Positions 15,259 through 15,414 of a stretch of DNA of 40,128 bases are shown one piece after another. Below the pieces are notes generated by a model that saw only the letters and a list, made by a program, of their open reading frames with translations, was not told the origin of the DNA and searched no databases. This stretch comes from Escherichia phage mEp506. Positions within the stretch are counted from its first letter, which is position 1, and the number at the start of each line of letters is the position of its first letter. Location: the sequence record PV340542. The stretch is one strand, 5' to 3'. A program made the translations under genes and the position numbers.

Positions 15259-15333
15259 GGGTCAGTCGTATAAAGGTCATTACGGAAGGCTGTTAACCTT
15301 CTTATCGTGGTTCGAGTCCACGCTGTCCCGCCA
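15259..15333 (+). tRNA. tRNA-Asn-like (anticodon GUU), 75 nt with CCA
   Basis: Hand-folded cloverleaf: acceptor gggtcag/ctgtccc (one U-U mismatch), 3-bp D stem, anticodon stem gaagg/ccttc with loop ctGTTaa, T arm cgtgg-ttcgagt-ccacg, 3' CCA. Confidence 0.55.
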
Positions 15334-15338
15334 AATAT

Positions 15339-15414
15339 GCTGGTTTAGCTCCAATGGTAGAGCAGTCGCCTTGTAAGCGAATGGGTAGCGGTTCAAGTCC
15401 GTTAACCAGCACCA
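15339..15414 (+). tRNA. tRNA-Thr-like (anticodon UGU), 76 nt with CCA
   Basis: Hand-folded cloverleaf: acceptor gctggtt/aaccagc, D arm gctc-caatggta-gagc, anticodon loop ctTGTaa, T arm agcgg-ttcaagt-ccgtt, discriminator A, CCA. Confidence 0.7.

Follow-up and report, generated by a model that had tools for sequence, protein, structure and literature searches.

[quoted passage not shown] The existence of the pair is not new: it is annotated in the records of phage 21, Sf6, and SfI and has long been known in lambdoid and P22-like phages. By the window we mean the whole 40,128-bp stretch of DNA that was analyzed, all of which is a lambdoid prophage of the HK97/HK022/HK446 kind, in prophage order, running from int to the tail fibre genes.

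Two conserved tRNA genes behind the late terminator

Exactly two tRNA genes were found by ARAGORN in the whole window, both on the + strand, and both score well above the Rfam RF00005 gathering score of 29 bits (Table 1). A first-pass annotation, made from the sequence alone, had proposed the two genes with these coordinates and anticodons at a site between tR' and the lysis genes, and ARAGORN, Rfam, and alignment bear it out on each point; the tRNA finder that it had suggested as a check accepts both genes and reads their anticodons as GTT and TGT.

The region upstream is that of a lambda-type late control circuit. The Q region is 97% identical to that of HK446, and the HK446 record annotates the same late promoter as pR'. 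In our promoter scan, pR' was the only promoter-like site upstream of the tRNAs; this consensus scan, which a weak promoter could escape, detected no independent tRNA promoter between pR' and the tRNA genes. The terminator tR' is laid out as a long hairpin (15197-15249), then UUUUUAUUU, with the U-run ending at 15258. Beyond the tRNA pair, the remainder of the leader contains a conserved stem-loop at 15502-15536 before S, and lambda-type S, R, and Rz genes follow. As a side observation, S appears to be broken in the window by a 14-nt deletion at about 15876, so that a 79-aa ORF is found instead of 107 aa, and an HK446 holin query matches the window S in two frames by tblastn.

Table 1. Features around the tRNA pair (positions in the window)
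Feature	Coordinates	Strand	Basis
Late antiterminator gene Q, lambda-type, 207 aa	14361-14984	+	ORF; HK446 homologue annotated as late gene regulator Q
Late promoter pR', TTGACT-17-TAAATT	15027-15055	+	Promoter scan; near-identical to the lambda pR' region
tR', terminator of a short 6S-like leader RNA	15197-15258	+	RNA fold of 15062-15262; lambda alignment
tRNA-Asn, anticodon GTT (GUU)	15259-15333	+	ARAGORN; Rfam RF00005, 55.3 bits, E 2e-9
Spacer between the tRNA genes, 5 nt, AATAT	15334-15338	+	
tRNA-Thr, anticodon TGT (UGU)	15339-15414	+	ARAGORN; Rfam RF00005, 61.5 bits, E 4e-11
Rest of leader up to S, lambda-homologous	15416-15656	+	Alignment with lambda, phage 21, and Sf6; downstream flank classes
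Holin gene S, lambda-type, first protein gene downstream of the tRNAs	15657-15963	+	

Both genes have the features of working tRNAs. The anticodon loops, CUGUUAA in tRNA-Asn and CUUGUAA in tRNA-Thr, are 7 nt long and have the canonical U33 and purine 37; the T loops, GGTTCGAGTCC and GGTTCAAGTCC, fit GTTCRA; and the 3' CCA is encoded in both. The tRNA-Asn has discriminator G73 and a full 5-bp anticodon stem (GAAGG/CCUUC), together with a U4.U69 mismatch in the acceptor stem and a D stem of three pairs plus U13.U22. The tRNA-Thr begins with G1-C72 and C2-G71 and has A73, C14 where A14 is usual, and an anticodon stem, GUCGC/GCGAA, that contains a G27.A43 mismatch. The identity elements for AsnRS (G34-U35-U36 and G73) and for ThrRS (G1-C72, C2-G71, and G35-U36) are all present in the respective tRNAs. 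A phage tRNA-Thr has been found to restore decoding of ACA in cells (Govande et al. 2025, PMC12445682).

Conservation was measured in 93 contigs with homologous flanks, with the adjacent 76 nt of noncoding DNA as the flank. Nucleotide diversity was 0.006 in tRNA-Asn, 0.013 in tRNA-Thr, and 0.082 in the flank, and is thus 6 to 14 times lower in the tRNAs than in the DNA beside them. A minor allele shared by two or more contigs was seen at 6 of 126 sites in the tRNAs and at 27 of 76 in the flank (Fisher p = 1.8e-8). Among 124 viral contigs examined, tRNA-Asn was called in 122 and its sequence was identical in 108 of these. Among natural variants, tRNA-Thr shows compensatory substitutions, G5U with C68A in 5 contigs and A49G with U65C, as well as several changes that preserve G.U pairing, and a U4G variant of tRNA-Asn restores pairing at the acceptor mismatch. 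Beyond overall shape, the anticodons, discriminator bases, T loops, and CCA ends are conserved. We read this pattern as the mark of purifying selection on both genes.

One could still imagine that the two sequences do not decode, either serving as RNA-processing signals between the leader and the lysis mRNA or hitchhiking as pseudogenes. The U4.U69 mismatch and weak D stem of tRNA-Asn, the C14 and G27.A43 of tRNA-Thr, and the fact that lambda manages without the cassette could all be read that way. Against it stand the conservation of anticodons, discriminators, T loops, and CCA beyond shape, and the intact synthetase identity elements. Moreover, the weakened anticodon stem is itself a published resistance feature, and an identical tRNA-Thr decodes ACA in cells (Govande et al., PMC12445682), so we consider a nondecoding or decaying origin very improbable. 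The first-pass annotation had correctly noted the U-U acceptor mismatch, the 3-bp D stem, and the CCA ends and had suspected from the first two that tRNA-Asn is degenerate. That suspicion does not hold: with GUU and G73 kept, tRNA-Asn is more conserved than tRNA-Thr and far more so than the flank, and its conservation rules out decay. Both are real tRNA genes, and neither is degenerate.

A cassette shared among lambdoid phages

The tRNA pair was found in 93 phage records and, as annotated by PGAP, in 369 of 5,426 complete E. coli genomes (~7%). Both window genes match their counterparts in phage 21, Sf6, and HK446 with 100% identity, and the window tRNA-Thr has the sequence of the published "tRNA-Thr21" and of the HK446 tRNA-Thr; the cassette region is 100% identical to that of HK446 over the 271 nt compared. 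HK446 has both tRNAs, and its GenBank record annotates neither. A recent preprint describes HK446 as having "a single" tRNA (10.64898/2026.07.10.737580). The genome papers of SfI and phage L discuss the late-operon tRNAs, and the first-pass statement that some lambdoid phages are known to have tRNAs at the Q-S junction is true of this very pair, as annotated in phage 21 and Sf6.

A four-way alignment places the borders of the cassette. The window tracks lambda up to the tR' T-run and then phage 21 and Sf6 through both tRNAs, and all four sequences converge again at AACTGAGCCGTAGCC, about 15416, which is the right-hand junction. It had been proposed at first pass that the tRNA genes replace the sequence that separates tR' from S in lambda. 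Replacement did occur, of about 165 nt of unrelated lambda sequence, but because lambda homology resumes at AACTGAGCCGTAGCC, only the proximal part of the tR'-S spacer is affected.

The same pair is found in different surroundings. In the 124 IMG/VR contigs, the cassette lies behind a phage-21-type tR' in about 95 and behind a lambda-type tR' in about 22; with either type of tR', tRNA-Asn always starts 4 nt past the T-run, and the pair precedes differing lysis modules. Given two unrelated Q/tR' types, differing lysis modules, and this constant spacing, the pair is, by these comparisons, a discrete mobile module, a cassette some 160 bp long that opens the late operon. Phage 21, Sf6, and HK446 share with the window the gene order, the 5-nt spacer between the genes, the 4-nt distance from the tR' U-run, and the right junction. 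The window, like HK446, phiv205-1, and Kapi1, has the cassette behind a lambda-type Q, pR', and tR', whereas phage 21 and Sf6 have it behind a Q21-type antiterminator, a qut site, and tR'. The spacer varies among phages (diversity 0.109) and is AACAT in phage 21 and Sf6, one base different from that of the window. Phage L, by its published description, has tRNA-Asn(GUU) first, 46 bp past the late transcription start and in the same location, but its second slot holds Leu(UAA) rather than Thr(UGU); we found no known nuclease link for Leu(UAA), which counts against a role in replacing destroyed host tRNAs.

Codon usage and integration as alternative explanations

The most familiar explanation for phage tRNAs is that they top up scarce host tRNAs, here above all for ACA, for late translation, with no defence involved; the first-pass annotation had suggested such support for late genes. 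We compared the phage genes with 98 kb of E. coli K-12 genes and a ribosomal-protein/EF set, using greedy longest-ORF calls in which small errors are possible. Certainly, ACA is 1.8 times commoner in the phage than in the K-12 genes, and its share of Thr codons is 0.170 in the late genes, compared to 0.124 in the 98 kb of K-12 (p = 0.01). The host thrU gene is single copy. Codons ending in A are likewise the ones read by the other tRNAs known in the second slot, Gly(UCC) and Leu(UAA), and GGA shows a 2.3-fold enrichment in the window phage. Similarly, the SfI paper gives ACA as 17.3% in the phage and 7.1% in the host, and the phage L paper reports that the coat gene uses AAC for 24 of its 25 Asn codons.

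The distribution of these codons within the genome argues otherwise. Most of the ACA enrichment comes from the early genes (0.303), whose transcription precedes that of the late-operon tRNAs, whereas the structural genes resemble the host (0.138; p = 0.49) and the major capsid gene has ACA at 2 of its 26 Thr codons. AGG (3.5 times), AGA (2.7 times), GGA, CGA, and TCA are all enriched beyond ACA, yet no Arg tRNA is carried. For Asn the case is weaker still: codon choice is unbiased (AAC share, 0.609 in late genes and 0.616 in the host), Asn codons as a whole are only about 1.16 times as frequent as in the host (47.2 and 40.7 per 1,000), and the host already has four asn tRNA genes. Supplementation fits better in Stx phages of the 933W type, in which the ileZ-argN-argO tRNA genes lie between Q and stx/S, downstream of pR' and tR', and read the rare codons AUA, AGA, and AGG; their specificities differ from those of the window pair. 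The SfI authors likewise had no explanation for tRNA-Asn. Also left unexplained by supplementation are the stem differences exactly at nuclease determinants and the fact that phage tRNAs protect against Old and host thrU does not. By this comparison, codon supply is a weak account of the cassette, and we regard it as unlikely to be the main reason for its maintenance.

A role in lysogeny has also been envisioned, in which prophage tRNAs make up for a host tRNA gene disrupted by integration; it was proposed for HK446 in the preprint (10.64898/2026.07.10.737580), and HK446 and SfI do integrate in thrW, a tRNA-Thr gene. That gene, however, encodes Thr(CGU), not Thr(UGU), integration by such phages rebuilds an intact thrW (phage L paper), and the idea does not account for tRNA-Asn. 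The cassette lies far from int and attP, behind the late terminator. In addition, the integrase region of the window gave no megablast match to the HK446 integrase gene, and its ORF is 303 aa compared to 386 aa, and still the cassette is identical. The anticodon mismatch, the distance from attP, and the same cassette beside a different integrase rule out compensation for a disrupted tRNA gene, and we give it next to no weight.

Anticodon stems and OLD-family tRNases

Replacement of host tRNAs lost to OLD-family tRNases, the reading that we favor, draws first on work with the P2 nuclease Old. Old is responsible for classical P2-lambda interference, and its lethality comes from removal of the anticodon arm of host tRNA-Thr(UGU) (Govande et al., NAR 2025, PMC12445682), the tRNA whose anticodon the window tRNA-Thr shares. 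The cleavage sites are paired CNG motifs of the anticodon stem, at nt 28-30 and nt 40-42; cells are rescued from Old by phage genes for tRNA-Thr(UGU), and host thrU does not protect (PMC12445682). The tRNA-Thr of phage 21 protects against Old and resists it in vitro, by C28U/G42A and a shortened stem (PMC12445682). Consistent with this, the HK446 tRNA-Thr(UGU) supplied in trans allowed HK97, HK542, and Bas34 to regain plating on Old+ cells (10.64898/2026.07.10.737580). The published rescue data all come from tRNA-Thr expressed in trans from plasmids.

Set beside their host counterparts, both window tRNAs lack the paired motif (Table 2). The tRNA-Thr follows the full rule for resistance to Old, with CNG lost and the stem shortened by G27.A43, matching tRNA-Thr21. 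The tRNA-Asn follows half of it: both CNG motifs are lost, and the 5-bp stem is intact. In the regions fetched, the Old-sensitive phages lambda, HK75, HK97, and HK542 have no tRNA genes, and Old-resistant HK446 has the cassette.

Table 2. Anticodon arms and nt 16 of host and window tRNAs
tRNA	nt 28-30/40-42	Paired CNG	nt 36-39	nt 16
Host thrU	CUG/CAG	yes	UAAU	U
Host asnT	CGG/CCG	yes	UAAU	U
Window tRNA-Thr	UCG/CGA, plus G27.A43	no	UAAG	A
Window tRNA-Asn	AAG/CUU	no	UAAC	A

Several observations complicate a role against Old. The preferred targets of Old are reported to be Thr(UGU), Gly(UCC), fMet, Val(UAC), and Pro(UGG) (10.64898/2026.07.10.737580); tRNA-Asn(GUU) is outside these five, and it is cleaved by Old more slowly than thrU (Govande et al., PMC12445682). 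Viral tRNA-Thr alone neither rescued lambda nor relieved the toxicity of Old in recB-deficient cells, and in the preprint the escape of HK446 is put down to a protein inhibitor, Oad2, and it is doubted that the HK446 tRNA acts against Old (10.64898/2026.07.10.737580). Timing is a further difficulty. We had considered that a Q gene free of ACA might let the cassette switch on in thrU-depleted cells; this proved false, as Q contains four ACA codons. If thrU is depleted early, then given the ACA codons in Q and in the early genes, Q might never be made, which counts against rescue from Old.

The PARIS nuclease AriB offers a possible reason for the presence of tRNA-Asn. The substrates of AriB are Lys(UUU) and Thr(UGU), with Asn(GUU) as a secondary one, and the cut falls between nt 40 and nt 41 (Belukhina et al., PMC12409363); both window anticodons are thus among its targets. 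Its determinants are U39 (in a UAAU motif), A41, and U16 (PMC12409363); at these positions, the window tRNA-Thr has G39, G41, and A16 and the tRNA-Asn has C39, U41, and A16, compared to U39 and U16 in the host. Lambda is also restricted by PARIS. Nevertheless, neutralizing PARIS needs the T5 versions of the Lys, Thr, and Asn tRNAs together (PMC12409363), and ARAGORN found no tRNA-Lys, the prime AriB target, anywhere in the window; lacking tRNA-Lys(UUU), the cassette cannot be a complete anti-PARIS kit. Any diverged tRNA would be expected by chance to differ at positions 16, 39, and 41, and the anticodon match is post hoc, so that for tRNA-Asn these features amount to consistency, not proof. 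Another candidate was HepS of Gifsy-1, which responds to lambda-like J proteins and cleaves Thr(UGU) secondarily. We set it aside as the selective agent, since it recognizes the anticodon itself and sharing that anticodon gives a phage tRNA no obvious resistance.

Virulent phages provide a parallel. Like the window pair, the Lys, Thr, and Asn tRNAs of T5 (against PARIS) and the Thr tRNAs of T4, Bas32, and Bas33 (against Old) share anticodons with the host targets, and the resistant tRNAs of the virulent phages and the window pair are alike in a position 39 other than U, loss of CNG, and imperfect anticodon stems. The rescue phenotype is reported for the virulent-phage tRNA-Thr as for that of the cassette (10.64898/2026.07.10.737580). 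The settings are different: the window cassette has two genes and belongs to a temperate phage, where it lies under late antitermination, whereas virulent phages have large tRNA arrays that are expressed early. The cassette also has no tRNA-Lys, and its sequences are not closely related to the T5 tRNAs.

A second cassette lineage, found in seven contigs, gives independent support to the reading that we favor. It consists of tRNA-Asn, a chimeric tRNA-Thr(UGU), and tRNA-Gly(UCC); ARAGORN reports these contigs as Asn and Gly(UCC), with the third gene sitting between the two. The chimera, part phage tRNA and part host thrU, scores 49 bits in Rfam. Its anticodon stem, ACUGA/UCAUC, is thrU-like, with three pairs and the CNG motif at 40-42 broken, and a U68C substitution in it makes for better pairing with the 5' strand, which is of phage type; in one contig (L097) this chimera occurs with the host arm intact. 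To judge from these sequences, the chimera seems to have reached the published resistance recipe independently, by a second path. For the phage tRNA-Gly(UCC), we had expected loss of the CNG motifs; this was false, as it is 4 nt from host glyT and keeps both, which speaks against the defence reading. The Thr(UGU) and Gly(UCC) that this lineage combines are nonetheless the first two preferred Old targets named in the preprint (10.64898/2026.07.10.737580).

The window phage also encodes proteins with a bearing on Old. Its homologue of Gp33, the Old trigger, is 96% identical, and its Oad2 homologue shares 90.6% identity with the HK75 protein, compared to only 53% with HK446 Oad2. The HK75 type of Oad2 is reported to be nonprotective (10.64898/2026.07.10.737580). 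With an Old trigger, an Oad2 homologue of this reportedly nonprotective type, and the cassette in one phage, this is a natural test genotype for separating their contributions.

We imagine that the cassette would work as follows. RNA polymerase would start at pR' and normally halt at tR', 4 nt before tRNA-Asn. Polymerase modified by Q, and perhaps some basal read-through as well, would then transcribe both tRNAs, followed by S, R, Rz, and the virion genes. Since the genes are behind tR', full expression of the cassette would come late, unless tR' leaks; a literature search for tRNA expression data from BTP1 turned up nothing useful. Host RNases may excise the tRNAs from the late transcript, with CCA already encoded, and the AsnRS and ThrRS of the host could charge them. 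The phage tRNAs would stand in for host tRNAs destroyed by OLD/Toprim abortive-infection tRNases such as those that P2 prophages (Old) and P4 satellites (PARIS AriB) carry. Altered anticodon stems would let them escape cleavage, so that ACA (Thr) and AAC/AAU (Asn) could still be read and late proteins made. Modest help in decoding the rare ACA would be a compatible side benefit. We infer both the role of tRNA-Asn and the benefit of the pair in its native late-operon position.

One can go further and envision the cassette as a multitarget kit against OLD-family Toprim tRNases, a broader proposal that we offer as possible rather than probable. The tRNA-Asn, a secondary target of AriB and a slower substrate of Old in its host form, would be a second resistant replacement that was overlooked in the preprint, and the cassette would diversify under this pressure, the second lineage arising by recombination with a host thrU-like gene and subsequent weakening of the stem. 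In phages with Gp33 and an HK75-type Oad2, the cassette would be the main factor for growth on P2 lysogens.

The tRNA pair itself is little of a discovery. Its function, long puzzling, especially for tRNA-Asn, has become newly tractable through the studies of 2025 and 2026, in which a tRNA-Thr identical to that of the window counters Old when supplied in trans. The window phage may be useful for studying how the work is divided between the tRNAs and Oad2, what tRNA-Asn contributes, and whether the cassette is effective at its native site.

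tRNA genes in HK446 and a three-gene variant

Both tRNA-Asn and tRNA-Thr are also present in phage HK446 (JQ086372), at positions 35097-35252. In tRNAs, position 14 is nearly always A14, which partners U8; in the tRNA-Thr of the window it is C14 (position 15352), and in seven viral contigs it is U14. The change may bear on tRNA structure or on escape from nucleases; a contact of AriB, the tRNase of the PARIS defence, has been reported at the tRNA D loop. No tRNA genes are annotated in the HK446 GenBank record, and a recent preprint (bioRxiv 10.64898/2026.07.10.737580) credits this phage with one tRNA only, Thr(UGU).

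The variant cassette of the related viral contig L035 (see table), which also occurs in contigs L016, L070, L071, L079, L087, and L098, carries a chimeric Thr(UGU) gene, phage-type in its 5′ portion and host thrU-like in its 3′ portion. ARAGORN gives no call for this gene because its anticodon stem is cut to only 3 bp. The Gly(UCC) gene of the variant differs from E. coli glyT at 4 nt, the changes including A38G and a compensatory C6U/G66A pair. About 0.8 kb from the variant cassette, L035 also has a match to the sRNA family STnc100 (258-435, minus strand; Rfam, 105 bits); Rfam gave no STnc100 match within the window.

Features located in the window and in compared viral contigs
Feature	Sequence	Coordinates	Strand	Remarks
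tRNA-Asn, chimeric tRNA-Thr(UGU), tRNA-Gly(UCC)	L035	1210-1440	-	variant cassette
Variant cassette with the same chimeric Thr(UGU)	L097	1279-1509	+	host anticodon arm intact
Lambda-type holin gene S	window	15657-15963		14-nt deletion at about 15876
Strong G+C-rich stem-loop	window	15502-15536		9-bp stem; between tRNAs and S
Lambda cIII thermoregulator element (RF01804)	window	3979-4037	-	Rfam, 88.5 bits
Early-left recombination locus, including Gp33 and Oad2 homologues	window	3595-3765, 1543-2025	-

The early-left region

The RF01804 match lies where cIII begins, which fits a lambdoid early-left operon. HK446 and HK75 match the recombination locus of this region (Erf, Abc2, gp31, Kil). Its Gp33 homologue is 96% identical; Gp33 is, according to a published report, a trigger of P2 Old, the nuclease that cleaves host tRNA-Thr(UGU). 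The homologue of Oad2, the Old inhibitor of HK446, is of the HK75 type (90.6% identity to HK75_28, compared to 53% to HK446 Oad2), a type published as not inhibiting Old. Pfam gave no match for either homologue in the window.

Holin gene S and its leader

Relative to lambda and HK446, S of the window lacks TAACGAGCGTGTTT, and because of this 14-nt deletion the frame is lost past codon 73, leaving an ORF of 79 rather than 107 amino acids. The prophage may be lysis-defective, or else there may be an assembly error at the site.

The stem-loop of the leader reads GGCAGGAGG...CCTCCTGCC, followed by GTTTTGCCC. It is kept in lambda and Sf6, with loop-proximal bases that differ in a covarying manner. 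Its appearance suggests a weak terminator, or else an element for RNA processing or stability, in the late leader.
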